A stretch of 46,344 nucleotides of DNA from an uncultured bacterium. Its GTDB lineage: Bacteria; Hydrothermota; Tepidihabitantia; Tepidihabitantales; Tepidihabitantaceae. Under the pieces are notes generated by a model. That model was not told the DNA's origin and searched no databases. It saw nothing but the letters and a program-made list of their open reading frames with translations. Position numbers and translations under genes: made by a program. Below, piece after piece: positions 2,659 through 46,344 of this stretch. Location of the stretch: positions 1 through 46,344 of the forward strand of contig CAZAKP010000002.1 in assembly GCA_964485845.1 (NCBI GenBank), read 5' to 3'. How positions within the stretch are numbered: the stretch's first letter is position 1; each line of letters starts with the position of its first letter.

Positions 2659-2945
2659 AGCTCAGGCGCTCCGCCAAAACGGGGACTGTCCCTTCCGAAG
2701 TGGGGACAGATCCGCGCCGAGTCCGACGCAGGCGCTCCGCGGACCTGTCCCCGCTTCGCAAGACAGCCTCGCGTCGCTCCGTAGACGTGGAAATAGGGAC
2801 TGTCACTTCGCAGGGCCCTCGTGCGACTGGGGACACATCCGCGCCGCGTTCGTCGCGCCGCTCCGTGGACGTGTCCCCTCCGAAGACTGTCCCCATTTTG
2901 AGGCAGGGGAAGAAGAAGAAAATGGGTAGCGTCCCCATTTTACGG
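2659..2945. repeat. Intergenic block of nested GGGAC/GTCCC palindromes spanning the histidine-kinase start codon
   Basis: GGGGACTGTCCC lies at 2681-2692. Two ~50-nt hairpins of the form GGGGACAN-(tccgcgcc...ctccg.ggac)-NTGTCCCC lie at 2702-2751 and 2829-2878. GGAAATAGGGACTGTC lies at 2783-2798, GTCCCCATTTT at 2890-2900, and AAAATGGG tagc GTCCCCATTTT at 2918-2941 overlaps ATG 2922. Confidence 0.7.
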
Positions 2946-5084
2946 GAACTTCATGACCTGCGGGAGCAGCTTGCTGTCGAGCGGCTGGACTTCGAGTCGG
3001 CCAATGAGGCGGCGATCGAGGCCCTGCGCGAGCTGGAGCTTTCCCGCGAACGCTACGCGGACCTTTTCAATAATGCCCCGCTCGGCTATCTCCTGCTCGA
3101 CCGCAACGGTTTCATCCGCGAAGCCAACCGGACTGCCGCGCTGATGCTGGGTGAGCCTGCCGACCGGCTGTGTAACGTCCTGCTCGCGCACTTCGTCGCC
3201 AAAGAAGACAGGCGGAGCCTGCTAAGGCACCTGAACCGGTGCCGGCACAGCGCGAGTGACGAAGAGGTAACCACCGGGCTGAGGATGGCCGGCGCCGAAG
3301 GCCGGCTGCTTGACGTCGCGCTCACCAGCCGGACGCAGCCGGGAATGCCCAAATCGCTCGCGCAGGTCCGCTATCGCACCGCGATGGTGGACGTTACCGA
3401 CCGCAAACGGGCCGAGGCCCAGGTGCGGGCGGACGTCGCCGCCCTGACCCGAATGCACGATTTGAGCGTTGCTTCCCTGGGCGGGCTGGGCCTCGGGCCG
3501 CTGCTTCAGGAGGTCATGAACACGGCGGTGGCTATCGTCGGTGCAGGTCGGGGCACTCTGCAGTTGCTGGAGGGCGGCTCCCTGAGTATGGCTGCCCAAT
3601 CCGGGCACGAGCAGCCGTTTCTGGAGTTCTTCGGCCGGGCCGAGAACCGGGCCTCGTCGTGCGGCGAGGCGCTCAGGTGCCGGGAACGGGTGATGGTTCC
3701 CGATGTCGAGGCGAGCCCGCTATTCGCCGGCACGCCCTCGCTCGACGTTCTGCGCAAGGCCGGAGTCCGGGCCGTGCAATCAACTCCGATGGTCAGCGCC
3801 TCGGGCAATCTGCTGGGCATCCTGACCACTCACTGGAGCGAACCCCATTCGGTGAACGAGCACGACCTCTGGCGACTTGACCTTTTGGCGCGGCAGGCTG
3901 CCGACCTGATTGAATCCGGCCGCGCGAGACAGGCCCTGCGCGAAAGCGAGGAGAAGTACCGCAGCGTGGTCGAACGGGCGAGTGACGGAATCTGCGTCAT
4001 CCAGCAGGGCCGGCTCAGCTATGTGAACCAGCGGCTGGCAGAGATGGTGCAGCACAAGCCGGAAGAACTGGTCGGCCGGGAGTTCATCGATTACGTATGC
4101 CCGGATGACCGGACGATGGCTCTCGACCAGTACCGCCGCCGCCTCGCCGGCGAGACGTCTTCGTACGAAGTCAGGCTCATCGGCCACGACGGCGACGAGG
4201 TGCTGGTCGAGGTCAACGCCGCGCTGGCGATGTATGGCGGCGAACAGGCCGACATCGTCCTCGTCCGTGACGTCACCGAGCGCCGGCAGGCTGAGCGCAG
4301 ACTGCTGGAGACGCTGGCCGAGCTGAAGCGTTCCAACGAGGAGCTGGAGCAGTTTGCCTACGTCGCGTCGCACGACCTGCAGGAGCCGCTGCGGATGGTT
4401 TCGAACTACGTCGACCTGCTGCGGCGGCGTTACCGGACGAAGCTGGATGGACAGGCCGACAAGTACATCGACTACGCGGCGGGCGGAGCTAAGCGGATGC
4501 AGGCGCTCATCACCGACCTCTTGACGTTCTCCCGAGCCGGCCGGCGCGAGTGGCAGACGACCCGGGTCGACCTCAATCAAGTATTCCAGCGGGCGCTGTG
4601 CAACCTGGAGGCGGCCATCGGTGAAGCCGGCGCGGAAGTCACGTCGAGCACGTTGCCAACCGTCGCCGGCGACGAGCTGGCCCTCGTGCAGTTGTTCCAG
4701 AACCTGATTGACAACGGCATCAAGTTCCGCAGCAAGGAACCGCCGGCGGTGAGAGTGGAAGCGGAGACGCGGGGACGCGGGGACGCGGAGACACGGGGAC
4801 ACGGAGACGCGGAGACGGGGTTCGTCACTATCCGCGTTTCCGACAACGGCATCGGGATCGAGCCGCGCCACGCCGAACGGGTCTTCCGGCTGTTCCAGCG
4901 CCTGCACACGGCCGAGGAGTATCCCGGCACGGGTATCGGCCTCGCGGTGTGTAAGCGCATCGTCGAGCGCCACGGCGGACGCATCTGGGTGGAACCCGGG
5001 TCGGGTAAGGGCACAACTTTCTCATTTACGCTCCCCGGAGGCGAACTGAATGCGGGTCAGCATCCGCCCTCCCGCGAATCATGA
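2922..5084 (+). CDS. Multi-sensor histidine kinase (PAS-GAF-PAS-HisKA-HATPase_c)
   Basis: The phosphoacceptor H-box reads FAYVASHDLQEPLRMV. The N, G1 and G2 boxes read [18 protein letters not shown] and [18 protein letters not shown]. The ORF track extends to 2550, but the upstream in-frame region is low-complexity and Arg-rich, so ATG 2922 (MGSVPIL) was chosen. The 8-nt tandem repeat at 4761-4817 encodes ETRGRGDAETRGHGDAETG. Confidence 0.8.
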   Translation: MGSVPILRELHDLREQLAVERLDFESANEAAIEALRELELSRERYADLFNNAPLGYLLLDRNGFIREANRTAALMLGEPADRLCNVLLAHFVAKEDRRSLLRHLNRCRHSASDEEVTTGLRMAGAEGRLLDVALTSRTQPGMPKSLAQVRYRTAMVDVTDRKRAEAQVRADVAALTRMHDLSVASLGGLGLGPLLQEVMNTAVAIVGAGRGTLQLLEGGSLSMAAQSGHEQPFLEFFGRAENRASSCGEALRCRERVMVPDVEASPLFAGTPSLDVLRKAGVRAVQSTPMVSASGNLLGILTTHWSEPHSVNEHDLWRLDLLARQAADLIESGRARQALRESEEKYRSVVERASDGICVIQQGRLSYVNQRLAEMVQHKPEELVGREFIDYVCPDDRTMALDQYRRRLAGETSSYEVRLIGHDGDEVLVEVNAALAMYGGEQADIVLVRDVTERRQAERRLLETLAELKRSNEELEQFAYVASHDLQEPLRMVSNYVDLLRRRYRTKLDGQADKYIDYAAGGAKRMQALITDLLTFSRAGRREWQTTRVDLNQVFQRALCNLEAAIGEAGAEVTSSTLPTVAGDELALVQLFQNLIDNGIKFRSKEPPAVRVEAETRGRGDAETRGHGDAETGFVTIRVSDNGIGIEPRHAERVFRLFQRLHTAEEYPGTGIGLAVCKRIVERHGGRIWVEPGSGKGTTFSFTLPGGELNAGQHPPSRES
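4761..4817 (+). repeat. 8-nt coding microsatellite (G[GA]GACRCG)x7 inside the histidine-kinase ATP-binding domain
   Basis: Direct reading gives gagacgcg gggacgcg gggacgcg gagacacg gggacacg gagacgcg gagacggg. The unit length is not a multiple of 3. The paralogous gene carries only 2 units (8771-8789) and loses frame. Confidence 0.75.
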
Positions 5085-5150: not shown

Positions 5151-6503
5151 ATGAAAAACAGCAGCACGCCGCCCCGGACAGCCGGCGGGCGGAACCGACT
5201 CGATGCGCACTTTGCCCCGGGCGAGGCGGTGGACCGAATCAATCTCCTTGCGTCGATTGTGGAGTCATCGGACGATGCCATCATCACCAAAACGTCGAAG
5301 GGCGTCATAACGTCGTGGAACAACGGCGCCGAGAGGATTTACGGTTTTACGGCCGACGAAGTAGTGGGTCGTCCCATCTCGATTCTGCTTCCGCCCGGCC
5401 AGGTTGACGACGTTCCGGCCATCCTCGAGCGGATTACGCGCGGGGAGAGCATCCACCACTACGAGACCCGGCGCCGGCGCAAGGATGATTCGCTGCTCGA
5501 CGTGTCGGTGAGCATATCGCCGGTCAAGGACCGCACCGGCCGCATCGTCGGTGCCTCGACCATCGCCCGCGATATCTCGGCCGAGGTCGCCGCCCGCCGC
5601 CAGTCCGAGGAGAAGCTCGCGGCCGCCTCGCAGTACGCGCGCAGCCTGGTTGAGTCGTCGCTCGACCCGCTCGTGACCATCTCGGCCGACGGCAAGATTA
5701 CCGACGTGAACGAAGCTACCGTCAAGGTCACCGGCGTGCCGCGCGAGCAGCTTATCGGGACCGACTTCTCCAACTATTTCACCGAGCCGGACAAGGCCCG
5801 GGAAGGCTACCAGCAGGTGTTCGCCGAGGGCTTCGTGACCGACTACCCGCTGACCATCCGCCACGGCGACGGCCGGCTGACCGACGTGCTCTACAACGCC
5901 AGCGTCTATCGCGATAACCGGGGCAACGTCACCGGCGTGTTTGCCGCCGCGCGGGACGTAACGCTTCAGAAGCAGAGCTCGCTCTACGCCCGCAGCCTCA
6001 TCGAATCGTCGCTCGACCCGTTCGTGACGATCTCGGCCGACGGCAAGATTACCGACGTCAACGAGGCCACCGTCGCGGTAACCGGCGTCCCGCGCGAACA
6101 GCTCATCGGGACCGACTTCTCCAACTACTTCACCGAGCCGGATAAGGCCCGGCAGGGTTACCAGCAGGTGTTCGCCAAAGGCTACGTCACCGACTACCCG
6201 CTGACTATCCGCCACCGCGACGGCCGGCTGACCAGCGTGCTCTACAACGCGAGCGTTTTCCGCGATACGCGCGGCAATATCATGGGCGTCTTTGCCGCCG
6301 CCCGCGACGTCACGGCCACGAAGCGGGCCGAGGCGGAGCTGGCCGAACAGCGCCGGCGGGAACAGGAGCGGCTGGCCGAGCTCGAGAAGTTCCAGAAGCT
6401 CACCGTGGGCCGCGAACTGCGGATGGTCGAGCTCAAGAAGGAGATCGAGGAATTGAAGCGGGCGGCGGGCAGTCGTGCCGCCGGTGCGCAGGGAGCAGAC
6501 TGA
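5151..6503 (+). CDS. Triple-PAS sensor protein with no recognisable output domain and a C-terminal coiled coil (ELRMVELKKEIEELK)
   Basis: There are three PAS/PAC folds. The second and third are a ~345-nt tandem duplication (5638-5982 versus 5983-6327, ~90% identical at the aa level). RBS AAGGAGG precedes ATG 5151. The C-terminus overlaps the next ORF by 29 nt in another frame. Confidence 0.75.
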   Translation: MKNSSTPPRTAGGRNRLDAHFAPGEAVDRINLLASIVESSDDAIITKTSKGVITSWNNGAERIYGFTADEVVGRPISILLPPGQVDDVPAILERITRGESIHHYETRRRRKDDSLLDVSVSISPVKDRTGRIVGASTIARDISAEVAARRQSEEKLAAASQYARSLVESSLDPLVTISADGKITDVNEATVKVTGVPREQLIGTDFSNYFTEPDKAREGYQQVFAEGFVTDYPLTIRHGDGRLTDVLYNASVYRDNRGNVTGVFAAARDVTLQKQSSLYARSLIESSLDPFVTISADGKITDVNEATVAVTGVPREQLIGTDFSNYFTEPDKARQGYQQVFAKGYVTDYPLTIRHRDGRLTSVLYNASVFRDTRGNIMGVFAAARDVTATKRAEAELAEQRRREQERLAELEKFQKLTVGRELRMVELKKEIEELKRAAGSRAAGAQGAD

Positions 6504-7458: not shown

Positions 7459-7913
7459 ACGGCCGGCCGGGTCTTGAGATCGTCGTCGTCGAGGATGACC
7501 CCAGCGATGTGCTGCTGCTGATGCGCGAGTTCCGCAAGCACAACGTCGCAAACAACGTGGTGCTGCTTGAGGACGGCGCCCGCGCGCTCGACTACCTCCT
7601 GCCGGAAGGAGCGCGGCCGATTCCGAGCCCCTCCCGGGTCGTCATCCTGGACTTGAAGCTGCCCAAGGTCAATGGCGTTGAGGTCCTGCGCCGCATGAAG
7701 ACCGACGAGCGGACCCGCGACGTACCGGTGGTGGTACTGACGTCGTCGCAGGAGGAGCGCGACGTCAGGGACGCGCGCGAGGCCGGCGCCGACGGTTACC
7801 TGGTCAAGCCGCTCAAGTTTGATGTCTTTGCCCGGTCCATTCCCAATCCGCACCGGGGCTGGCTGCTCGCGAATGGTGTCGCCCTTGGCGGCGAGGTGAA
7901 GGACACGGTATGA
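7455..7913 (+). CDS. Single-domain response regulator (CheY-like receiver)
   Basis: The N-terminus reads VVVEDDPSDVLLL. The likely phospho-Asp context is VVILDLKLPKVNG, and LTSS ... GADGYLVKP follows. RBS AGAGGAGGA precedes GTG 7455. The start overlaps the stop of the upstream histidine kinase. Confidence 0.8.
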   Translation: MNGRPGLEIVVVEDDPSDVLLLMREFRKHNVANNVVLLEDGARALDYLLPEGARPIPSPSRVVILDLKLPKVNGVEVLRRMKTDERTRDVPVVVLTSSQEERDVRDAREAGADGYLVKPLKFDVFARSIPNPHRGWLLANGVALGGEVKDTV

Positions 7914-36278: not shown

Positions 36279-36794
36279 AGTTACCTCCATCAGGCGACTC
36301 GGGCGTCAACCTGACGGCCGGCCGCCTCATTCAAAGCTCAACTCTCTCTCGACCGCGCCTTCGTGAACACGACCAACGGCGCCGAAAACGTCCGGCGCCG
36401 CGCTCACACGGTGGCTATGTGCATTATGCGTGCCGCTCAGTTCGCCGTGGTGGGAGGGAACTCAGTTCCAGTCTTGGCAATGAGCCGGTCAAGGCCCGAT
36501 GCTCGGCGCGTAACTCCCGAGGTTACATATTGCCCGGATTATACTTCGCCCGTTGCACACTTCAGCGGCAAGATTCCGGATTCCTGCCTCTGCCGTCCAT
36601 CTCTCCGACTTCCAACGCCTGCTTATGCCGTGCCTTGGTGCCTTGCATACCGGGCATGTTTCCTGCAAGCATTCGGCCATGCGTCCGCGCGCAGGCGCGG
36701 TTTGATTAAGGCACGGCCAGGTGGCGTACGGGGTATCCGACCAGGTTACGCGACATCGGGCCGACGTCCGGCAGTATTGGAGAAAGGAACTGCA

Positions 36795-37190
36795 ATGGAG
36801 AATTTGAGCAGCCACATTCAGCGGGCAGACTGGCAGAAGGAAAAGCACGTCCCGGTAATCGAGTGCCCGGAAAAGGTCGCGGCCGACACCGAGTTCGCGG
36901 TCAAGGTGAGCCTTGGCAAACAGATCGCCCACCCCAACACAACCGAGCACCACATCCGCTGGATAGACCTTTACTTCTGCGCGGAAGGGGCGAAGAACAC
37001 GTCCCAGGTGGGCCACTTTGAGTTCACGCTGCACGGCGAGTCGGTCGAGGGTCCCAACCAGGGGCCGGCCTACTCAAGTCACGCCGTCACCGCGTACATG
37101 AAGACCAAAAAGCCGGGATGCCTGCATGCGCTGGCCTACTGCAACATCCACGGACTTTGGGAGAGTACAAAAGAGCTGAAACTGACCTAG
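36795..37190 (+). CDS. Superoxide reductase (1Fe neelaredoxin / desulfoferrodoxin centre-II type)
   Basis: The EKHVPVIE and YCNIHGLWES motifs are the SOR iron ligands. The ORF track places it within 36363..37190; the start is taken at ATG 36795. Confidence 0.75.
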   Translation: MENLSSHIQRADWQKEKHVPVIECPEKVAADTEFAVKVSLGKQIAHPNTTEHHIRWIDLYFCAEGAKNTSQVGHFEFTLHGESVEGPNQGPAYSSHAVTAYMKTKKPGCLHALAYCNIHGLWESTKELKLT

Positions 37191-37199
37191 GAGGCGCAA

Positions 37200-37550
37200 A
37201 TGCCCGAATTCCTGAACCCTTTCCCCGGCCGCGTGCCGGACCGCAAGCTTGGCAAGGAAGAGCTGGTGCGGGCGCTCCGGCTTGACCTCGCGGCCGAGCA
37301 CGAGGCGGTACATCTCTACCTCGCTCACGCCGACGCCTGTGAAGACCCGCTGGCCGAGGCAGTGCTGCGCGACATTGCCGACGAGGAGCGGAAGCACATC
37401 GGCGAATTCATGCGCCTGATACTGCTCCTGACCGGCAACGAGCAACAGCTCACCGACTCAGGCGCGCAGGAGGTGGAGCAGATGCGGTCGACACTGGCGG
37501 GTAATAAGAAAACGACGGTCGGTTCGCTGATCGAGACGAAGGAGGCGTGA
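37200..37550 (+). CDS. Encapsulin cargo: ferritin-like protein (EncFtn/Flp type) with a C-terminal targeting peptide
   Basis: The ferritin-like ExxH motifs are AAEHEAVH and DEERKHIGE. The C-terminus TVGSLIETKEA matches the encapsulin cargo-loading peptide consensus. RBS AGGAGG is present. It lies immediately upstream of the shell gene. Confidence 0.7.
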   Translation: MPEFLNPFPGRVPDRKLGKEELVRALRLDLAAEHEAVHLYLAHADACEDPLAEAVLRDIADEERKHIGEFMRLILLLTGNEQQLTDSGAQEVEQMRSTLAGNKKTTVGSLIETKEA

Positions 37551-38341
37551 TGGGCAGCGACTTCGAGAACCGGGCTCTCTCGGGCATTGGTGACAAGACG
37601 TGGGAAGTGCTGGAGCGGGCCGCGGTCGGGGCGGCCAAAAGCCAGCTCTCGGCGCGGCGGTTCATTTCGATTGAGGGGCCGTACGGCCTTGGGGTCCAGG
37701 CAGTGCCCCTGGCCGACGAACATTCGCCGGATGGCCACGCGGTCGCCCGGCTCCTCTCGCTCCACTATCTCTTTCGTACCTTCGGCATGAGCCTGCGCGA
37801 CATCGCCGTCTACGAGCGGGAGTCGCTCACGCTCGATGTCGGGCCGGCGGCGAGCGCCGCCATCGAGTGTGCCCGGGCCGAAGAGGAACTCATCTTTTCG
37901 GGCAGCAAAAAGGCCCCCGGGCTCATATCCTCCGCCGGCGTCGAACGGCACAAACTCGCCTCGTGGCAGCCTTTGGGCAAGGCGGCGGCCGACGCGGTGG
38001 AAGCGGTGAACAAGCTCGACGCCGCCGGGTTCCACGGGCCCTACGCGCTCGCGCTCGCGCCTGCCCGCCACAACCTTTTGTACCGGCTCTATCCCGACGG
38101 CAACGGCACCGAGCTCGGGCACATCGAGAAGATTGTCGGCGGCGGCGTGTTCAAGAGCCCGGCCCTGAAGACGGGCGGTGTGCTGCTTGCCACCGGCGAG
38201 CAGTTCTCGGCCATCGTCATCGGCCAGGACCTCTCCGTCGGCTACGTCGGCCGGGTCGGACCGGACGTCCAGTTGTCGGTTTCAGAGAGCATCGCTCTCT
38301 ACCTGCGCGAACCCAAGGCCGTCTGTGCTTTGGAAGATTGA
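37550..38341 (+). CDS. Family-1 encapsulin nanocompartment shell protein (Linocin M18 / HK97 fold)
   Basis: It is 263 aa. RRFISIEGPYGLG and GQDLSVGYVGR correspond to the T. maritima encapsulin motifs RKFVDVEGPYGWE and GQDLSIGYEDR. The start ATG overlaps the cargo stop (gTGATGg). Confidence 0.8.
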   Translation: MGSDFENRALSGIGDKTWEVLERAAVGAAKSQLSARRFISIEGPYGLGVQAVPLADEHSPDGHAVARLLSLHYLFRTFGMSLRDIAVYERESLTLDVGPAASAAIECARAEEELIFSGSKKAPGLISSAGVERHKLASWQPLGKAAADAVEAVNKLDAAGFHGPYALALAPARHNLLYRLYPDGNGTELGHIEKIVGGGVFKSPALKTGGVLLATGEQFSAIVIGQDLSVGYVGRVGPDVQLSVSESIALYLREPKAVCALED

Positions 38342-38446
38342 TTACGACCCTGCGTCTACCACCCAGCGTGGGGTCGTTCCCCAAAAGGGAGGGAGAGCGC
38401 CAACCGGCGCTCTTCTCTTGGCAGTTGGGCTGAAAGTGAGGTAACT

Positions 38447-38568
38447 ATGAACCCGATATTGAACCACAGAGCACACAGAGAACACCGAGGCTCGCGTGCG
38501 GAGTCCAGACTCCGGACCTTTGCCCGCTCTGTGAACTCTGTGCCCTCCGTGGTTGATCCTGTCCCCAT
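38447..38568. repeat. MITE-like palindromic repeat element, copy A
   Basis: The left arm is CCCGATATTGAACCACAGAGCACACAGAGAACAC. The right arm gctctgtgaactctgtgccctccgtggttgatcc is its imperfect reverse complement. It is followed by TGTCCCCATC. It produces the spurious NPILNHR ORF. Confidence 0.6.
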
Positions 38569-38738
38569 CCGGACACCGGTTTCGGCCGATCTGCGTTCTC
38601 ATCTGGCTCTGTGGTCGGCCGACCGTGGGCTCGGGGAGGAACGCCCGGACGCTACCGAAGGCTCGGTGCAGACCCGCGCCTTCAGTCGACTCTGGCGAGC
38701 TGCCTGGTCGGGCCCGACCTCGAATCAGCGGAGAAGAC

Positions 38739-40523
38739 GTGGCGGATGAAATCTTCACGCTGATTGCCGGCGGCAAGGCCGGCTACGGCATCCGCAAAGC
38801 CGGCACCTCGGCCGCGCGGCTCTTCGCGCGCATGGGAAGGCGAGTCTTCCAGATGGACGACTATCCGAGCCTGATCCGCGGCGGCCACAACTTCTTCTCC
38901 GTATCGACGTCCCGCAGTCAGATAACCAGCCACTACCTGAAGGCCGACCTCGTGGTCTGCCTCGACCAGCGCTCGGTCGACGCTCACCGCGACCATCTCA
39001 AGCCGGGCGGCTTCATGGTGTTCGACGACAAAGCCCGCCTGCCCGACTCGTCGCCAATCGCCAATCACGCATCGCTCCCCATCTCCACCGAGGCAAAGAA
39101 GTACCCGGACCCCGACCTGGTAACCGGCGTCGCGGTCGCGGCGGTACTTGCTTCCGCTATCGGCATGTCGCACGACGAGCTGATGCGCTTCATCGAGCAG
39201 GAGTACCCGCGCGGCACCGAGAATAACAAAGCCTATGCGAGCGCCATCTATAGCGCGGCCGAGCCCGCGCTTGCCGGCCGGTTCAAGCTGGAACGCGGCG
39301 ACAGGCAGCGGCCGATGCTCTCGGGCAACGATGCCATCGCTCTCGGCGCGGTCGCCTCCGGGCTCGACGCCTTCTTCGCCTACCCAATGACCCCGGCGTC
39401 CTCCATTCTCACGTTCCTCGCCGCCAGGGCCGGCGAACTTGGCACCGTCGTGGTCCATCCCGAGAACGAAATCGGGGTCATGAACATGGCCATCGGCGCG
39501 GCCGCGGCCGGCGCCCGGACCATGGTCGCGTCAAGCGGCGGTGGCTTCGCGCTGATGCAGGAAGCGTTCTCGCTCGCGGGCATGGCCGAGGTGCCGCTTC
39601 TCTGCGTGCTGTCCTCGCGCCCCGGGCCGTCGACCGGCCTGCCTACCTACACGTCCCAGGGCGACCTCGACTTTGCCTTAAACCAGGGGCACGGCGAGTT
39701 CCCGCGGGTCGTGGCGTCGCCGGGCAGCATCGAGGAAGCCTACCTGCTCGCGGCAGAACTCATGAGCCTGGCCTGGGAATTCCAGACGCCGGCTATACTC
39801 CTGACCGAAAAGCACCTCTCCGAAAGCCGGATGACCGTTGAACTGGACCTCGAAAAGGCTGCCTGGGCCGAGGAATTTGGGAAAACGGGGGAAATGGGGA
39901 CTGGAATGGGGGAAATAGGGACAGTCCCTGAAGGTACAGTCCCTATTTCCCCGTACCAGCGCTACCTCGACACCCCGACCGGAATCTCGCCGCTCGCCTT
40001 CCCGCCATCCAAAGAGCTCATCAAATGGAACAGCTACGAACACGACGAAGCCGGACTCACAACCGAAGACGCGGGGATGTCGGCGCGGATGGCCGACAAA
40101 CGCCGCCGCAAAGGCGAGTGCCTTGCCGCCCACATCCGGGTCCTGAATACAGTGAACGTGTATCCTGCGCCTCATTCGGGCGGGGACATGACCCAATCGT
40201 CCTCGATTGGGATCGTGTCCCAGGCCGGCGCGGATTCACCCGTCATCATCACCTATGGCTCAACCACGCTCAGCGTGCTCGAGGCCCTGCGCTACGGCGG
40301 CATCCGGGCCACCGTTGTCCAGCCGCGGTTCCTCCGGCCGCTGCCCGAGTGGGAGCTTGCCCGCTACGGGGGAAAGCACGTAACCGTGGTCGAAGAGAGT
40401 GTAACCGGCCAGTTCGCAACGCTGCTCAAAGAGAAGGCGGGCATTACCGCCGAACGGGTTATAAAACGCTACGACGGCCGCCCCTTCTCCCCGGACGACC
40501 TCGCCGAGCAACTCAGGAGTTAA
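38739..40523 (+). CDS. korA: 2-oxoacid:ferredoxin oxidoreductase alpha subunit (gamma-alpha fused, KorA-type)
   Basis: The N-terminal gamma-like domain reads IAGGKAGYGIRKAG ... LIRGGHNFFSVS. The alpha-domain motif reads SGNDAIALGAVASGLDAFFAYPMTPASSI. The start is GTG 38739 with GGAG upstream. A 75-nt palindromic insertion lies at 39878-39952. Confidence 0.8.
   Translation: MADEIFTLIAGGKAGYGIRKAGTSAARLFARMGRRVFQMDDYPSLIRGGHNFFSVSTSRSQITSHYLKADLVVCLDQRSVDAHRDHLKPGGFMVFDDKARLPDSSPIANHASLPISTEAKKYPDPDLVTGVAVAAVLASAIGMSHDELMRFIEQEYPRGTENNKAYASAIYSAAEPALAGRFKLERGDRQRPMLSGNDAIALGAVASGLDAFFAYPMTPASSILTFLAARAGELGTVVVHPENEIGVMNMAIGAAAAGARTMVASSGGGFALMQEAFSLAGMAEVPLLCVLSSRPGPSTGLPTYTSQGDLDFALNQGHGEFPRVVASPGSIEEAYLLAAELMSLAWEFQTPAILLTEKHLSESRMTVELDLEKAAWAEEFGKTGEMGTGMGEIGTVPEGTVPISPYQRYLDTPTGISPLAFPPSKELIKWNSYEHDEAGLTTEDAGMSARMADKRRRKGECLAAHIRVLNTVNVYPAPHSGGDMTQSSSIGIVSQAGADSPVIITYGSTTLSVLEALRYGGIRATVVQPRFLRPLPEWELARYGGKHVTVVEESVTGQFATLLKEKAGITAERVIKRYDGRPFSPDDLAEQLRS
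39878..39952 (+). repeat. In-frame GGGAC-family palindromic insertion inside korA (encodes GKTGEMGTGMGEIGTVPEGTVPIS)
   Basis: GGGGAAATAGGGACAGTCCCT gaaggt ACAGTCCCTATTTCCCC forms a 14-bp perfect inverted repeat. The same AAATAGGGAC / GTCCCYATTT motif occurs at 55-68, 2783-2798, 2890-2941 and 38559-38568. Confidence 0.65.
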
Positions 40524-40574
40524 GAATGGGTACCAGGATTCTCAGGTTCGGGGTTCTGCCTCGTCTTCCTGCCC

Positions 40575-40665
40575 TTCGTGCCTTTGTGTCTTTGTGGTTG
40601 AATCCGCCTCCTGCCCGCCGGGCATTTTGCATTTTGATATTTGCATTCTGCAATTTGACTTGCCC
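40575..40665. repeat. Partial copy B of the repeat element in the 170-nt korA-korB spacer
   Basis: ctttgtgtctttgtggttgaatcc is the reverse complement of GGATTCAACCACAAAGACACAAAG, matching the CACAGAG terminus. The internal motif GCATTCTGCAATTTGACTTGCC lies at 40643-40664. Confidence 0.55.
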
Positions 40666-40692
40666 TCGTTCTTGGTCAGCTCCGGAGGTCGC

Positions 40693-41535
40693 ATGACCCC
40701 GCTCTCGACTCCTGCCGAAGTTACCTGGTGCCCGGGTTGCGGAAACTTCGGCATCATGAGCGCCTTTAAGCGGGCAGTCACCCGGCTCGAATCGGAGGGA
40801 ATCGACCGCAGTCACCTCTTCATCTCCTCCGGTATCGGCTGCCACGGCAAAATTGCCGACTACCTGGCCCTGTCCGGTTTCTACTCGATTCACGGCCGGG
40901 AGATCGCCACTGTCCAGGGCGTCAAGCTCGCCAATCCCGACCTCTACGTCATCGCCTTCGGCGGCGACGGCGACGCGCTCGGCGAAGGCATCTCGCACCT
41001 GATATTCGCGGCCAAACGCAACGCCGACATGACGATGATAATTCACGACAACGGCGTCTACGCGCTAACCACCGGCCAGTATTCGCCCTTAAGCACCCGC
41101 GGCTACAAAGGACCCTCCACGCCTTCGGGCTCGGTCGAAGACCCGCTCAACCCGCTCAGCCTGATGCTCGCCGCCGGCGCCACCTTTGTGGCCCGTGGCT
41201 ACGCGGGCCGGGTCCCCGAGCTCGCCGACCTCATGTACCGCGCGGTGCGCCACCGCGGGTTCGCCTTCCTCGACGTGCTCCAGCCCAGCGTCGTCTTTAA
41301 CGACACCTACAAGAAGTACAACGCCGAGACCGAACCGGTGACCCACGACCCGAAGAACTTCGGTGAGGCCCTGGCCGCGGCGCAGAAGCTCGACAAGCTT
41401 CAGCTTGGTGTCTTCTACGAAACCGACAAGCCCGCCTTTCACCGCGAACTCCTGGGCGAACGGAACCCGGTGAAAGACCGCCTGTCCCAGGCGGAACGGC
41501 TGGAACGCATCAAGCGCGTTCTCGCCGGAGGCTAG
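40693..41535 (+). CDS. korB: 2-oxoacid:ferredoxin oxidoreductase beta subunit (TPP-binding, KorB-type)
   Basis: TWCPGCGNFGI and GGDGDALGEG (the TPP GDG motif) are present. RBS GGAGG precedes ATG 40693. Confidence 0.8.
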   Translation: MTPLSTPAEVTWCPGCGNFGIMSAFKRAVTRLESEGIDRSHLFISSGIGCHGKIADYLALSGFYSIHGREIATVQGVKLANPDLYVIAFGGDGDALGEGISHLIFAAKRNADMTMIIHDNGVYALTTGQYSPLSTRGYKGPSTPSGSVEDPLNPLSLMLAAGATFVARGYAGRVPELADLMYRAVRHRGFAFLDVLQPSVVFNDTYKKYNAETEPVTHDPKNFGEALAAAQKLDKLQLGVFYETDKPAFHRELLGERNPVKDRLSQAERLERIKRVLAGG

Positions 41536-41544
41536 TGAACTTTC

Positions 41545-41880
41545 ACCTTCACCCTACTCTCCCCCTCAAGGGAGAGGGTAGGGAAGACCCTGAATCCGAC
41601 AATGGAGCAACGAAAGCACGCACTGTCCGACAGGGGCCGCTGCGGCCAAAGACACGAAACAAATGGGTGCGGAATGCCACCTGCCCATTTCACTTCGATT
41701 TCGTGTTTTCGTGGCCATCAATCTCGGTTCCGGGGAAGAGCACACCCTTCCCTCCCCCTCGAGTGCGAGGGAACCAAAGAGCGACCTTCCCTCCTCCACA
41801 AGGCGAGGGAAAACAAGCCTCATCCCTCCCTCCCCCTTCAAGGGAGAGGGAATCGAAGGGAGGGGGTAACACGAACGAGA
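41545..41880. repeat. Cluster of four CCCTC/GAGGG stem-loops in a 340-nt intergenic region
   Basis: The stem-loops are CCCTACTCTCCC cctcaag GGAGAGGGTAGGG (41563-41585), CCCTCG agtg CGAGGG (41752-41767), TTCCCTC ctccacaaggc GAGGGAA (~41787-41811) and CCTCCCTCCCCC ttcaa GGGAGAGGGA (~41826-41850). They generate spurious LKGEG-containing ORFs on both strands. Confidence 0.55.
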
Positions 41881-41891
41881 AGGAGAGACAC

Positions 41892-42545
41892 ATGAAACAG
41901 TGGAAACTGGTCGGACTTGTGCCGGCCATACTCGCCGCCGCCGTCCTATTGGCCGGCTGCGGCGCAAAGACAACGCCGGTGGACCCGATGTCCACTCAGG
42001 CCGGTATCGGCCTGCAAATGGGTATGCGCGACCTCTGGGATGCCCACGTCACCTGGACGCGGATGTACATCGTCTCGGCCGTCGCCAAGCTGCCGGATGC
42101 GTCCACCGCCGCGGCCCGGCTGATGCAGAACCAGGAAGACATCGGTAACGCCATCAAGCCCTACTACGGCGACGACGCCGGCATGCAGCTCACCACCCTG
42201 CTCAAGAACCACATCAGCACGGCGGGCGCGGTCGTAGCAGCGGCGATGGGGAAAGACACGGCGAAGCTTGCCGCGGCCCAGGTCCAGTGGACCGCCAACG
42301 CCGACTCGCTTGCCGATTTCCTCGCCACGGCCAACCCCAACTGGCCCAAGCAGACGCTCGCGGACATGCTCCACGAACACCTGCGGCTCACCACGAACGA
42401 GGCGGTTGCGCGCATCAAAATGGACTGGGCCGGCGACGTGAAGGCTTTCGACGCGATCCACCAGCAGGCGATGATGATGGCCGATGCGCTCAGCTCCGGC
42501 ATCATCAAGCAGTTCCCGGACAAGTTCAAGCCGGCGCAGATGTAG
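41892..42545 (+). CDS. Secreted lipoprotein of the same uncharacterised ~200-aa family (paralog 2 of 3)
   Basis: The lipobox is LLAGC. Family motifs are MRDLWDAHVTWTRMYIVSAV, PYYGDD, WTANADSLADFLATANPNW and GIIKQFP. An RBS precedes ATG 41892. Confidence 0.6.
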   Translation: MKQWKLVGLVPAILAAAVLLAGCGAKTTPVDPMSTQAGIGLQMGMRDLWDAHVTWTRMYIVSAVAKLPDASTAAARLMQNQEDIGNAIKPYYGDDAGMQLTTLLKNHISTAGAVVAAAMGKDTAKLAAAQVQWTANADSLADFLATANPNWPKQTLADMLHEHLRLTTNEAVARIKMDWAGDVKAFDAIHQQAMMMADALSSGIIKQFPDKFKPAQM

Positions 42546-42598
42546 GGCCGGCGGGACCAGACTTAGGCGACCATACGAAGGGATAGGGAGGTACACTA

Positions 42599-43663
42599 AT
42601 GCAGTGGCAGAGAGTAATCAAAACAGCAACACTGGTCGGGGTCGGGCTCATATTTGCCGGGCTCGCGCTCACCGCGTGCAAGACCAAAGAGGCAGTCTCG
42701 AACTACGTTCGCTATGACCTGGTGGCCGACACGGCCGGGTTCACCGGCGCGCGGCTCGACGCCCGCCTGCTCAACGCCTGGGGAATCGCCGTCGACGCCA
42801 GCGGCAACTTCCTCGTCGGCTCGAACCACAACGGCGACGCGCTCTGGTACGACGGCACCGGTGCCGACGTCGGCACGCCAATCGCAATCCCGGCCGCCGA
42901 TACGCCCGCGCTCGGCGCGCCGGCAGGCATCGTGCGTAATACAACCTCGGACTTCAAACTGCCCGGCACCGCCGAAGCGGCCAAGATGATCTTCGTCACC
43001 GAAGACGGGCTTGTCGTCGGCTGGTCGTCCGGGCTCAACGCGGTAAAAGTCGCGGACCAGTCGGGAACGGGCGCGGTATACAAAGGCGTCACCATCGCCT
43101 CGGACAACGGTGACAACTTCATCTACGCCACCAACTTCAAAGGCCACGCGGTCGACGTATTCGACAAGAACTTCAACCGCATCACCTCCAAGCCCTTCAG
43201 CGACCCGGATATCCCGGCCAACTACTCGCCCTTCAACATCGCCTACATCAGCGGCAAACTCTACGTCACCTACGCCGTACCCATGTCGCCCGACTTCGTC
43301 GACGACTCCTCGGGAGCCGGCGTCGGGTACATCGACATCTACGAAACGAACGGGATACTCAACAAGCGCTTTGTCACCCAGGGCTATCTCAACTCGCCCT
43401 GGGGCCTTGCCCTGGCCCGGGCCGAGTTCGGCGAGTACGCCAGCGCCATCCTCGTGGGTAACTTCGGCGACGGCACCATCAACGGCTACAAAACCGACGG
43501 CACCTGGCTCGGCCAGCTCAAAGACGCAACCGGGACCGTAGTGACAATCGACGGCCTCTGGGGCATCACCTTCAAACCGGCGGCCGACCCGGACCGGCTC
43601 TACTACACGGCCGGGCCGAACCACGAAAACCACGGCCTCTTCGGCTACCTGAGAATGGAATAG
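42599..43663 (+). CDS. Secreted beta-propeller protein, TIGR03118-like (paralog 2 of 2)
   Basis: A signal peptide is present. The sequence reads LVADTAGFTG ... LLNAWGIAVD ... NFKGHAVDVFD ... LNSPWGL ... GNFGDGTINGY ... DGLWGI ... HGLFGYL. RBS GGGAGG is present. Confidence 0.6.
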   Translation: MQWQRVIKTATLVGVGLIFAGLALTACKTKEAVSNYVRYDLVADTAGFTGARLDARLLNAWGIAVDASGNFLVGSNHNGDALWYDGTGADVGTPIAIPAADTPALGAPAGIVRNTTSDFKLPGTAEAAKMIFVTEDGLVVGWSSGLNAVKVADQSGTGAVYKGVTIASDNGDNFIYATNFKGHAVDVFDKNFNRITSKPFSDPDIPANYSPFNIAYISGKLYVTYAVPMSPDFVDDSSGAGVGYIDIYETNGILNKRFVTQGYLNSPWGLALARAEFGEYASAILVGNFGDGTINGYKTDGTWLGQLKDATGTVVTIDGLWGITFKPAADPDRLYYTAGPNHENHGLFGYLRME

Positions 43664-43768
43664 CTGCCGCTGGCCTCCGCACAAAAGAGCAAAGCGCATG
43701 CGGACACGCGAACCAACATCGCAAGGGCGGGGGCTCTCCCCGCCCCTGCCTCAAAGCCGACATTGGGC

Positions 43769-44017
43769 AAACCACAGAGCCCACAGAAAGCACAGAATAG
43801 GTGAAGCCAGGGTCTGGTCTCGCCCTTCGGAGTCGCTGTGCTACAAGCGTGCGGGGTCATCGTCTTCGCGGAGGTCTTTCGCTCCGCCGCCTCTGCCCAG
43901 AGGTCGTCCGGTTCGTGCAGTTAGCGGCCTTCGGGACAATTCGACTTTTGATAGCTGCATTTTGCAGTTTGACTTGCGCGTCCGACGCGCGCTGTGAACT
44001 CGGTGGTTCAATATCGG
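43769..44017. repeat. Repeat element copy C (full length, ~250 nt) with imperfect terminal inverted repeats
   Basis: The left terminus is AACCACAGAGCCCACAGAAAGCACAG. The right terminus gctgtgaactcggtggttcaatatcgg is the reverse complement of CCGATATTGAACCACCGAGTTCACAGC. The internal motif GCATTTTGCAGTTTGACTTGCGC lies at 43956-43979. Confidence 0.6.
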
Positions 44018-44081
44018 ATTCAGGGCCCTGGGCGGCCGGCCGCAACCCGGACGAAGAAAGAAATCGGGAGAGGAGAAGAAC

Positions 44082-44738
44082 ATGAAACACACGAAACCCG
44101 CCGGCCTGGCGCTTGCCGTGCTGCTCGGCCTGGCCCTCCTGGCCAATTGCGACGTTAACCAATTGCCCGACCCGGCCTACACCCCCACCGGGGTGGACCT
44201 CCGGCTTGCCATGCGTGAACTATGGAGCGGAGACGCCACCTGGACTCAAATCTACGTCGCCGACGCCTACGGCGGGGAGCCGGACGCGGCCGGCGTCGTA
44301 TTGAACCGGCTGATGCGGAACATGGACCAAATCGCCGACCGATTCAAAACCTACTACGGCGACGACACCGCCGAACGGCTTGGCACGCTGCTGCGCAACC
44401 GGGTCAGCGAAATGTCCGGGCTCGTCGCCGCCGCGCCGCTCGACGACAGCACCCAGTCGGCGCTCGCGCTCGACCAATGGAACGCCAACAGCGACTCGCT
44501 CGCCGGGTTCCTCGCCGGCGTCAACCCCCACTGGAAAAAAGAGACGCTCGTGGAGCTCTTCAACAAACAGGTGGACCTCACCGGCGACGAAGTTATCGCC
44601 CGCCGGGACAAGAAATTCGAGGCCGACATCCGGGGCGGCGACGAAATGCACCTCCAGGTCCTCAGGATAGCCGACGAACTCAGCCGCGGCATCATCCAGC
44701 AGTTCCCGACCAACTTCCAGTACGTGAAACCCCACTAG
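44082..44738 (+). CDS. Secreted lipoprotein of the same uncharacterised family (paralog 3 of 3)
   Basis: The lipobox is LLANC. Family motifs are MRELWSGDATWTQIYVADA, TYYGDD, WNANSDSLAGFLAGVNPHW and GIIQQFP. Confidence 0.6.
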   Translation: MKHTKPAGLALAVLLGLALLANCDVNQLPDPAYTPTGVDLRLAMRELWSGDATWTQIYVADAYGGEPDAAGVVLNRLMRNMDQIADRFKTYYGDDTAERLGTLLRNRVSEMSGLVAAAPLDDSTQSALALDQWNANSDSLAGFLAGVNPHWKKETLVELFNKQVDLTGDEVIARRDKKFEADIRGGDEMHLQVLRIADELSRGIIQQFPTNFQYVKPH

Positions 44739-44823
44739 CCGCCACCTCGCGGGTCTTTGGGGCGGGCTCTCGCCCGCCCCGCCGCTATTCCCCCGACAAC
44801 ATCTCCGCGGCACGCGACGACGT

Positions 44824-45204
44824 TTATCCGGTGACAAGCCGGCAGGCACGAGCCGCCGGCTTTCCTTCCCGTCCCTTGCGGTTCACTGTCACTGCCTGCA
44901 TGGCGAGCACGAGCCAGCCGATGGACTGCAACAACTGCCCTGCGCTGTAGTGGAGCAGCAAAAGGCCGACGAGCACACAGATGACGAGCGACGTGCCCCA
45001 CGATGCCACGAACTTGAGCCACCCCGGCAGCTTGCCCAGGATGGCGCCGTAGAACCACGGGAGCAACGCTCCGAGCACGGCCCACAACACGGGCGGGAAG
45101 CCGCCCGGCGGGTCACTCAGCCTGGTGGAGTCCGTGGCCGCAAGGGTCACGGTTACACAGGCGAGGGCGACGAACAGGACGAGAGCCGCGAGTCTTTTCG
45201 ACAC
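44824..45204 (-). CDS. Small integral membrane protein (3-4 TM), hypothetical
   Basis: RBS GGAGG lies 6 nt upstream of GTG 45204 (VSKRLAALVLFVALA). The ORF track extends to 45273. Confidence 0.4.
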   Translation of the reverse strand: MSKRLAALVLFVALACVTVTLAATDSTRLSDPPGGFPPVLWAVLGALLPWFYGAILGKLPGWLKFVASWGTSLVICVLVGLLLLHYSAGQLLQSIGWLVLAMQAVTVNRKGREGKPAARACRLVTG

Positions 45205-45205
45205 G

Positions 45206-45442
45206 CTATTCCTCCTTTTCCGAGTTTCGATGTATGCGAACGCCGCCGACAAGCACGCCGCACACTGCCGCACTCATCGCGCCGCAGCATGCCCCGGTGA
45301 TGACCCCATCCTTGCCCCGGCTGATCGCCATCAGGGCCACACCCGACATGGCGACGATGACGAGCGCCACGAGCGCTGCCAGTACGTAAAAACGCCGGCC
45401 GGAAGCATACGGGCACATCGCCGGGCCGGGGCAGCGTCTCAC
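45206..45442 (-). CDS. Small hydrophobic ORF (GACCGAMSAAVCG motif), weakly supported
   Basis: An ORF with one or two TM segments lies directly upstream of 44824..45204 on the same strand. No clear RBS is present. Confidence 0.2.
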   Translation of the reverse strand: MRRCPGPAMCPYASGRRFYVLAALVALVIVAMSGVALMAISRGKDGVITGACCGAMSAAVCGVLVGGVRIHRNSEKEE

Positions 45443-45568
45443 GAGGGCAGACCCCGGGGCCTACCCCGGACGATTCGGGGTATAGTCCGGTGCGTCACTA
45501 GGCGTACCTTTCGGTCACAAACCTATGGTGCCACCCGGAAAGTCGATGTCAAGGCAAATCTACTTGTA

Positions 45569-45790
45569 AGTGGATAAGCCTGTTGATAGTCCAGTGGAAC
45601 AGCCAAAAAGGGCGGTTTTTGGGTATATCCCGGGGGCAAGAATGGGGATAGAATGTGGACAACTCGCCCATCTCGGCATGGTTGTGCATGTCGCGCGTAC
45701 TATGCGGGTGGGGGTATCGCATTACTTATCCCCATGTATCCACATCCCAACAACAACAGCAATCTTATAGATATCATTTGTTGTTGTTCC
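45569..45790. promoter_or_regulatory. Low-GC non-coding region with four DnaA-box-like 9-mers and an AT-rich hairpin
   Basis: The 9-mers are the reverse complement of AGTGGATAAG giving TTATCCACT (45569-45578), the reverse complement of TGTGGACAA giving TTGTCCACA (45654-45662), TTATCCCCA (45726-45734) and GTATCCACA (45736-45744, spaced 10 nt from the previous). The hairpin is AACAACAACA-(20 nt AT-rich)-TGTTGTTGTT (45749-45788). Confidence 0.4.
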
Positions 45791-45956
45791 GGAAGGGAGC
45801 GTCCCGCGAGCCGAAAACCGGGCGCAAGACCATGGGCAGTCCCACGCGGGGGCCGGTCCCGGAACCCCCGCCAAATGCCCTTCCGCACGACAGAGCCGGC
45901 CCGCTGTTGCGTCCGGACTACCTGGACGGGGAAAGGAAGCTGCCATTCGGGATCTG

Positions 45957-46040
45957 AGCCCGATATTGAGCCCCGGATTTCACGGCGCGCGGCGGGGGGC
46001 AAGTCAGACTGCAGAATGCGGAGAGCAAAACGCAGAACGC
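45957..46040. repeat. Repeat element copy D (partial, inverted orientation)
   Basis: CCCGATATTGAGCCCCGGATTTCACGGCGCGCGGCGG ... GCAAGTCAGACTGCAGAATGC aligns base-for-base with the reverse complement of copy C's right end (CCGATATTGAACCACCGAGTTCACAGCGCGCGTCGG ... GCAAGTCAAACTGCAAAATGC). Confidence 0.6.
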
Positions 46041-46105
46041 CGCACACTCTCCGCGACCTCGGCGGTTGACAGGCCGGAGAAGCGGGCTAGGATGGAGGAG
46101 TGAAG

Positions 46106-46276
46106 ATGGCCTGGTTGATTTATTGGCCGCTATTGCTCGTGGTGGCGGCGGCGGTTGCGGCGGGGGTAGCCGTCATTGTGCGAAGGCTGCGGCACCAGGG
46201 GGATAATCCGTTCATCGTGCCGCCGCCGGAGGGTGAGGACCGAGGGGATGGTTCAACCACGGATGAACGCAGATGA
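46106..46276 (+). CDS. Small single-TM protein (56 aa), absent from the ORF track
   Basis: RBS GGAGGAG lies 5 nt upstream of ATG. The protein reads MAWLIYWPLLLVVAAAVAAGVAVIVRRLRHQGDNPF ... . Its 3' end overlaps repeat-like sequence (GGTTCAACCACGG ... TTCAGAG x3). Confidence 0.35.
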   Translation: MAWLIYWPLLLVVAAAVAAGVAVIVRRLRHQGDNPFIVPPPEGEDRGDGSTTDERR

Positions 46277-46344
46277 GGCGGAGAGGGACAGTTCAGAGTT
46301 CAGAATTCAGAGACCAGAATGCAGAGTGGCGGACACGGAGCGGA

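Follow-up and report, generated by a model that had tools for sequence, protein, structure and literature searches.

Putative miniature transposable elements, a nested passenger and mosaic repeats around korA and korB in a WOR-3-lineage bacterium

Repeated sequences occur between positions 38447 and 46040 of contig CAZAKP010000002.1 (GenBank assembly GCA_964485845.1; 46,344 nt, the whole of which we call the window), a stretch of DNA from an uncultured WOR-3-lineage bacterium that carries the korA and korB genes. They were originally predicted to be four copies of a single family of miniature inverted-repeat transposable elements (MITEs) with a conserved internal motif. We have good confidence that the region is best explained as a cluster of non-autonomous mobile and mosaic repeats. 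Its principal constituent, a hairpin element that we name E1, is very likely a transposon-type MITE, and the region a mosaic of such elements. The internal motif, rather than being part of a single family, sits in a second element, E2, which is nested in E1 and also found in other contexts. In related loci, E1 frequently ends 13 nt from the -35 hexamer of a sigma-70-type promoter, a spacing that probably reflects choice of target.

Structure and mobility of E1

E1 is about 122–124 nt long (112–124 nt across copies), has no coding capacity and is crossed solely by spurious open reading frames (ORFs). As had been anticipated, these yield NPILNHR peptides; ORF 38447–38749 begins MNPILNHR. An alignment of WOR-3 matches gives the layout CCCCAAATCCGATATTGAACCACAGAGCACACAGAG ... 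loop ... CTCTGTGCTCTCTGTGGCCTCTGTGGTTAATCCTATCTCGGTTCTTGGG, and an alignment of 38 ends from 19 copies shows that the termini are 36–40-nt imperfect inverted repeats with the consensus CCCnnrAnCCGAnATnG(nnnn)AACCACAGAGnnCACAGAG and the terminus string CCCnnAATCCGATATTGAACCAC. Both tips read 5'-CCC(C/T)... inward. The arms are made of CACAGAG sub-repeats, in tandem units of 8–9 nt with a 4-mer that varies among subfamilies, and the element folds as a single long hairpin (z -4.3).

An exact 18-base pattern, CCGATATTGAACCACNNNNNNCAC, scanned against species-representative genomes gave 43 loci, 31 of which are E1 elements in eight metagenome-assembled genomes (MAGs) belonging to candidate division WOR-3 or to others with the same element; the named WOR-3 sources are Zodletone, Alinen sediment, UBA2258 and Lac Pavin. 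The other 12 are mostly chance-like, with approximately 17 chance matches expected by a rough estimate made without a tool. Searching with an nhmmer profile of E1 recovers more copies than the pattern, some of them in metagenomes where the window's own population is represented. At least eight WOR-3-type MAGs contain several copies of E1, and the exact pattern alone places it on up to nine contigs of a single MAG. The window's exact KorB protein is encoded on eight metagenome contigs, which are 99.8–99.98% identical to the window over 6–15 kb, and one window gene is 79% identical at the DNA level to a WOR-3 MAG, which points to a WOR-3-type host; the scanned representatives do not include the window's species. 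As a negative control, IMG/VR was scanned with a 15-mer, and none of its 71 matches has the E1 architecture.

The similarity among the repeats might instead stem from local duplication within the window, with no mobility. Such duplication has occurred here, as the paralogous genes at 41893–42545 and 44082–44738 (D1/D3) attest. However, the further copies predicted to exist elsewhere were found by the dozen. They lie in other species and on contigs that are unrelated, and the flanks and duplication are particular to each copy, which refutes this explanation and leaves it a negligible probability.

Perfect 5-mers are repeated directly outside the tips predicted by hidden Markov model (HMM) in 14 of 26 non-redundant E1 elements that have both tips. 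The count rises to 17 of 26 if the boundary is allowed to shift by ±1, and a further three elements match at four of the five bases; at displaced offsets, used as a control, none of 130 comparisons has four or more matches. The target-site duplication (TSD) of E1 is therefore fixed at 5 bp and varied in sequence, the footprint of staggered-cut transposition. Duplications of this kind, for which the original prediction proposed a check, also flank two copies in the window, with a perfect CCCTG around copy C (43743–47 and 44026–30) and GAAGA around copy E (41583–87 and 41735–39). Based on the inverted termini and the 5-bp duplication, E1 would move by cut-or-copy-and-paste through a DDE-type transposase supplied in trans. 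The IS1380 family, with its CC ends and 4–5-bp duplication, is a tentative candidate for its parentage.

Within the window (Table 1), the shared string CCGATATTGAACCAC recurs as predicted, at 38453 (+), 44003 (-) and 45960 (+, two mismatches), with four matches at three or fewer mismatches versus 0.69 expected. The pairings A–C, C–D and B–D were recovered by a repeat finder at 79–87% identity, and every copy is intergenic, again in line with the prediction. The MITE-like description holds for A, C and E, based on inverted termini, 5-bp duplications and many dispersed copies in several genomes, but not for B. Moreover, the proposed four are not copies of one element, and two further repeats, E and F, had been overlooked.

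Copy A matches the E1 profile at 38448–38563 (profile positions 4–110, E 8e-20). It was described as a near-perfect palindrome, whereas its fold is an imperfect hairpin (DNA fold of -26 kcal/mol, z -4.5). The additional right arm next to it, which by eye is like the arms of the L052/L065/L071 subfamily (L numbers designate collected loci), resembles the leftover of a second insertion. Copy C matches the E1 HMM on the minus strand in two pieces, 43752–43841 (profile positions 29–119) and 43990–44025 (positions 1–36); both of its termini are present, as predicted, but the length of approximately 250 nt first assigned to it was too short. Copy D was said to align nearly base-for-base with the right end of C in reverse complement, but the identity there is only 79% over 47 nt, and D is 80% identical to B over 45 nt. 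It shows no TSD, nor any E1 HMM match at E<1e-3. The -35 box of the promoter-like site that it adjoins may lie inside its decayed arm, as aligned by eye. Copy E, a divergent relative, has arms with CACGAAA sub-repeats instead of CACAGAG, and a half copy of it, 96% identical, occurs on another contig (L016). Three separate REP-like hairpins (CCCTCTCCCCCTCAAGGGAGAGGG) surround copy E, at 41550–41587, 41743–41780 and 41822–41859.

Table 1. Repeat elements and modules in the window, and arrangements of the korA–korB spacer in the window and related loci.
Feature	Position or length	Strand	Remarks
Copy A, E1 MITE	38445..38575	+	Left terminus, loop and right arm present; last ~12 nt of right tip replaced
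Additional E1-type right arm and tip (TCTGCGTTCTCATCTGGCTCTGTGGTCGGCCGACCGTGGGCTCGGGG)	38590..38637	+	Inverted repeat I13 with 38463-38488
Module B1, arm-like half element (CTTCGTG CCTTTGTG TCTTTGTG GTTGAATCC)	40555..40603	+	In korA–korB spacer; Tandem Repeats Finder (TRF) period 8 at 40573-40596
Module R, 48-nt array of six heptamers (NNTTYTG) ending TTGACTTGC	40618..40665	+	Motif match at 40643; TRF period 7
Copy E, divergent E1 subfamily	41588..41734	+	Tips match tip HMM weakly; overlooked in the original prediction
Copy C, E1 long form (E2 nested in E1 left arm)	43748..44025 (278 nt)	-	E1 HMM and TSD
E2, nested element of ~153 nt with the 22-nt motif	43837..43994	+	No inverted termini; TGTR at both junctions
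Copy D, degenerate long form	45952..46086	+	E1 left tip, right-hand ~45 nt of E2, decayed right arm; inverted repeats I1 and I2
Promoter-like site TTGACA-16-TAGGAT	46066..46093	+	Right edge of D, upstream of small ORF 46107; consensus scan 10/12
Cluster F, arm (AACCACGGATGAACGCAGATG) and heptamer array (TTCAGAG x5)	46255..46344, runs off window	+	TRF period 7
korA–korB spacer, window and L003	169 nt		leader - R
korA–korB spacer, L001 and L004	502 nt		R-[285 nt]-R
korA–korB spacer, L002	598 nt		R-[48]-R-[285]-R

Insertion of E1 beside sigma-70-type promoters

Flanks were read outward from 67 non-redundant E1 tips. A TTGAC begins at offset 12–14 in 30 of these, at exactly 13 in 23, and at every other offset in no more than two; the near-misses TTGAAT and TTGAAC at offset 13 add a few ends. 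In 29 of the 30, YAnnnT follows 16–18 nt after TTGAC, mostly as TATAAT, TAGAAT or TACAAT. The resulting logo, gC-TTGAC(a/t)-N16/17-TAnAAT, is that of a textbook sigma-70 promoter, and no conservation is seen across the 13 nt that separate tip and -35 box. A correctly oriented long ORF lies downstream in 24 of 29 promoter-adjacent flanks, and a tRNA-like sequence, recognized by eye only, follows the promoter in three more (L041, L049 and L063). A start codon occurs 4–12 nt past the -10 box in 14 flanks (L009, L010, L015, L054, L057, L060, L061, L064, L067, L077, L081, L086, L088 and L090), and these short distances suggest that leaderless mRNAs are common in the lineage. In the window, copy D adjoins the TTGACA-16-TAGGAT site.

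The elements were proposed to be mobile carriers of promoters, which the data contradict on two counts. In no context is the TTGACT of the 22-nt motif followed by a -10 box at 16–18 nt, and it was rejected as a promoter; E1, for its part, adjoins promoters that were already there. The duplication occupies the DNA between the E1 tip and the -35 box, which makes the promoter part of the target and not of the cargo.

Two explanations of the fixed spacing were considered. Near-identical E1 copies in one MAG (L056, L063, L079 and L082) already keep it, which favors a preference at insertion over later selection, and we consider it probable that the spacing reflects target choice. Alternatively, E1 could be a co-opted regulatory module (an UP-element, a factor site or a read-through insulator) kept only where its tip stands at about -49. 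Selection of this type, for instance through an UP-element-like effect of the tip, is a formal possibility that counts against target choice, and the exactness of the spacing to the -35 box would agree with it, as would tips that are relatively A+T-rich within a genome of 64% G+C and promoters that are strong matches to consensus, three of them with tRNA-like transcript starts (by eye) and many serving apparently leaderless genes. However, selection would have to have discarded an implausibly large number of insertions to account for the recent copies. The promoter can, moreover, be faced by either terminus although the two differ in sequence (approximately 13 versus 10 among complete elements, by hand count), and copies A, C and E of the window persist away from promoters. 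A regulatory origin of the spacing therefore appears unlikely to us.

The E1 tip is placed 13 nt from a sigma-70-type -35 hexamer, this distance comprising the 5-bp duplication and 8 bp. If target choice is the correct explanation, target selection might read the -35 box itself or the RNA polymerase bound there. A TTGAAC (left) or, in one subfamily, a TTGACG (right) is found 14 nt inside the E1 tip; this inner box mirrors the outer TTGAC, so that one DNA-binding domain may read both the element end and the target. We tentatively propose, and with clearly less confidence than target choice itself, that the E1 transposase picks sigma-70 promoters through the -35 hexamer, using the domain that recognizes TTGAAC in its own terminus, or through a tether to RNA polymerase or sigma, delivering the element to -49 in either orientation. 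Our confidence is low that RNA polymerase or sigma, and not DNA sequence alone, is what reads the promoter. Literature searched on WOR-3 MITEs, 5-bp-duplication MITEs and -35-directed insertion gave no precedent for insertion of a bacterial MITE beside a sigma-70 -35 box.

At L065 (about 7670–7708), a 14-nt sequence between the E1 tip and a GTCAAG box is duplicated in tandem (GTGGCAGCTCTTCC CTGTGGCAGCTCTT). Removal of one 14-nt copy gives the usual spacing of 12–13 nt, and the duplication may be a footprint of earlier insertion or excision.

The nested element E2 and the mosaic modules

The 22-nt motif, GCATTYTGCARTYTGACTTGC, was correctly predicted to recur; it is found at 40643 (+), 43957 (+) and 45999 (-), with no occurrence expected and none in shuffled sequence. 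E2, to which it belongs, has the layout TGTR-CTACAAGCGTGC ... GCAGTTTGACTTGCGCGTCCGACGCGCGC-TGTG, and approximately 150 nt of it split copy C at 43842–43989. About 25 distinct E2 copies were recovered by nhmmer, inside E1, as solo copies in unrelated flanks and as head-to-tail tandems, and TGTR bounds the element in all of these contexts. Its overall fold is unexceptional (z +0.24), with short local hairpins only. The heptamer array of module R corresponds to the right-hand ~45 nt of E2 and occurs in other contexts as well.

E2 interrupts E1 at an identical position in at least seven loci, and the 5-bp duplication differs from one to the next. The long form, E1 with E2, is about 277 nt in length (range 275–332 nt), and the same architecture with its own TSDs is also present in L015, L041/L044, L010, L009, L014 and L077. 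A distinct duplication at each long-form locus indicates that the composite of ~277 nt transposes as a unit, and the constant TGTR boundary fits insertion of E2 into the CTGTG sub-repeats of E1. E2 has inserted into E1, apparently in these sub-repeats, and the composite now spreads; copy C is one such composite.

B and F are of a different nature. B had been taken for a copy of the same element as A, C and D, but neither it nor its arm-like half B1 matches the E1 HMM, and it does not fold (z -0.6). B and F consist of arm halves and heptamer arrays, and they grow and shrink among near-identical strains, most probably through recombination or slippage between R repeats. The 285-nt insert of the korA–korB spacer in related strains is a one-orientation chain of arm-like halves, each an 8–10-nt unit repeated two or three times and then GTGG/GCGG with ~10 nt, and R is the direct repeat that flanks these strain-variable inserts. 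An inverted, ~85% similar copy of F lies within the korA–korB insert of L001, and in L002 F has an additional 156 nt. Module indels are the sole large indels among strains that are 99.8–99.98% identical, and each is bounded by direct repeats, making recombination or slippage between the 48-nt R-type arrays their likely cause.

A third possibility for the elements, or for the 22-nt motif with array R, is that they encode a structured or protein-binding RNA regulating korB and its neighbors, similar to the regulatory RNA suggested in the original prediction. R lies directly upstream of the korB ribosome-binding site and recurs without change in over 40 metagenome stretches with several kinds of flank, and its UG(A/C) triplets every 7 nt are reminiscent of the triplet repeats to which ring-shaped RNA-binding proteins attach. 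However, Rfam 15 gave no match at gathering thresholds across the whole window, and its E-value mode gave only chance-level matches unrelated to the elements; neither E2 nor B has a stable fold; and the copy number of R varies from one to three among 99.9%-identical strains. The spacer with its elements is, moreover, absent from the orthologous position in relatives. Where KorB is 77–79% identical, korA and korB overlap or are separated by 14 nt, or by 154 nt with different modules, and the spacer from korB to the next gene, 358 nt in the window, is 16–100 nt. These short or different spacers indicate that the repeats are lineage-specific additions and not conserved regulatory sequence, and a regulatory RNA is accordingly very improbable. 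Readings of the motifs as attC or integron sites, a CRISPR-like array, a tRNA T-arm mimic, or a sigma-54 or extracytoplasmic function (ECF) promoter fit the sequence poorly.

It is also conceivable that the hairpins are of repetitive extragenic palindromic (REP)/BIME or REPIN type, spread by REP-associated tyrosine transposases (RAYTs, of the HUH/Y1 class) and retained for mRNA stabilization, termination or gyrase binding. The half-arms in mosaic clusters of single orientation (B, F and a 333-nt insert) are BIME-like, separate REP-like hairpins occur at 41550–41860, and the hairpin architecture is alike in several phyla. Lacking inverted termini, arrayed head to tail and always abutted by TGTR, E2 is compatible with target-specific insertion of the HUH type; set against the criteria for IS200/IS605-derived palindrome-associated transposable elements (PATEs), it shows no terminal inverted repeat (TIR), TGTR at both junctions, tandems, and short local hairpins only. 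E1, in contrast, has varied 5-bp duplications, and HUH/Y1 elements, such as IS200/IS605 and RAYTs, are established to make none; its termini have no conserved GTAG-type head. No RAYT gene turned up, in work that included no systematic search for one. RAYT-type mobilization is thus contradicted for E1 by the duplications and is possible for E2 and the arm arrays; as an explanation of the hairpins in general it seems to us improbable.

Several points weigh against the account favored here, in which E1 is a MITE that targets promoters and contributes to a mosaic. In ~0.7 Mb of collected loci, no transposase gene is bounded by E1 tips 0.4–4 kb apart, where only weak or nested matches were seen, and the IMG/VR 15-mer matches include no autonomous E1 partner. 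No empty site was recovered, which would be an allele of an E1 locus that lacks the element and has the 5-mer only once. Most loci were gathered by the exact left-terminus pattern, which biases the conservation of that arm and leaves the flanks unaffected; a covariation test of the hairpin (alignment A1) was uninformative, as the left arm is invariant merely because of this selection. The promoter rule is drawn from related loci, since copies A, C and E of the window have no TTGAC at 13 nt. Finally, resemblance is what suggests that B and F descend from decayed E1 arms.

Other repeats were also seen in the window. The korA gene (38739–40523) contains two in-frame palindromic inserts, at 39875–39952 and about 40160–40230, encoding approximately 19 and 21 residues (FGKTGEMGTGMGEIGTVPEGTVPIS and YPAPHSGGDMTQSSSIGIVSQA); both are absent from a relative's 76%-identical KorA, and their repeat family (GGGGAAATAGGGACAGTCCC) is distinct from E1 and E2. 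Palindromes of the form GGGGACAG.../GGAAATAGGGACTGTC, which belong to the family of the korA insert, fill the spacer at 2659–2950, and this family also occurs in metagenome locus L037. A histidine-kinase-like ORF (2550–5084) carries approximately seven tandem copies of GCGGAGAC at 4757–4817 and stays open through them (AETRGRGDAETRGHGDAET). In-frame palindromic repeats in korA and the histidine-kinase gene are reminiscent of Rickettsia palindromic elements (RPE), and the in-frame repeats of the window (GGAAATAGGGACAGTCCC, and GCGGAGAC x7) are a family separate from both E1 and E2. ORF 5151–6503 contains a 351-nt tandem duplication at 5627–6314, in two copies that are 86% identical. Directly upstream of korAB, at 36363–38341, are genes for desulfoferrodoxin, a ferritin-like protein and encapsulin (Linocin_M18), identified with the aid of the L001 gene calls; this set is syntenic in relatives at 77–79% KorB identity. 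Farther upstream are two genes for Ku and one for a LigD primase-polymerase.

Relation to known elements and significance

MITEs as a class are already known. Similar to E1, the Correia/NEMIS elements of Neisseria and RUP of Streptococcus pneumoniae are small, non-coding, dispersed intergenic hairpins with TIRs and a TSD, often near promoters. Correia/NEMIS differ in their TA duplication and 26-bp Correia terminus, to which the termini of E1 are unrelated, and Correia elements carry promoter parts of their own. Among these families, E1 alone has arms of 8–9-nt sub-repeats and an insertion point fixed 13 nt from the -35 box; the build of the arms is unusual, and the constant insertion point still more so. 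Tn3-family ends typically read 5'-GGGG, whereas those of E1 read 5'-CCC inward, and no Tn3-type transposase was seen. The Tn3-family-derived MITEs known as TIMEs or integron mobilization units resemble E1 in their 5-bp duplication, termini of ~38–40 nt and mosaic or composite non-autonomous structure (PMC4133298). With REP/BIME and RAYT-mobilized REPINs, the repeats described here share intergenic palindromic units, mosaic clusters and strain-level copy-number variation; the 5-bp duplications, the long termini and the missing GTAG head set E1 apart.

The yeast retrotransposons Ty1 and Ty3, as well as IS30 and Tn7 with their inverted-repeat-like or protein-directed targets, also insert at a set distance from a signal for transcription or from a bound protein, at a relatively safe site. 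Unlike E1, Ty1/Ty3 are eukaryotic and directed by Pol III, and systems of the IS30/Tn7 type have known target proteins.

Similar hairpins are found in other phyla, in an Akkermansiaceae MAG (L053 5775–5893 and L073 3702–3826, nhmmer E 1e-9), on Pseudoalteromonas megaplasmids (as at L167 1365–1540), on Gemmatirosa plasmids (as at L168 285–480, a nested pair) and on a Bacteroides ovatus plasmid (L169 375–440). These share an (A)TTGAACC(A/G)C box, i.e. ATTGAACC(A/G)C, followed by two or three tandem 9-mers (CACGGATTA, CACAGAGGA and CCGCAGAGG), and their presence in several phyla indicates that the architecture is cosmopolitan. In the literature on WOR-3 MITEs, MITEs with 5-bp duplications, -35-directed insertion and the element strings, no published description of E1 or its architecture was found.

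E1 and E2 give a candidate phylum known solely from metagenomes a mobile-element family whose termini, duplication and nested passenger are well defined, and they explain the spurious NPILNHR ORFs and inflated intergenic spacers of these MAGs. The strain-level variation of modules inside the korA–korB operon indicates that the repeats are evolving now. Placement 13 nt before a -35 box, in about four of five elements and in several species, is a target specificity apparently undescribed for bacterial transposons. If it reflects target choice, it would imply a promoter-recognizing transposase, with bearing on the ways in which mobile DNA locates safe sites and rewires transcription, and E1 copies would serve as ready markers of genuine promoters and of apparently leaderless starts in a lineage that is uncultured. 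If the transposase does read promoters, it would be a bacterial counterpart of Ty1/Ty3-style integration and would offer a natural means of putting DNA at a set distance from promoters.

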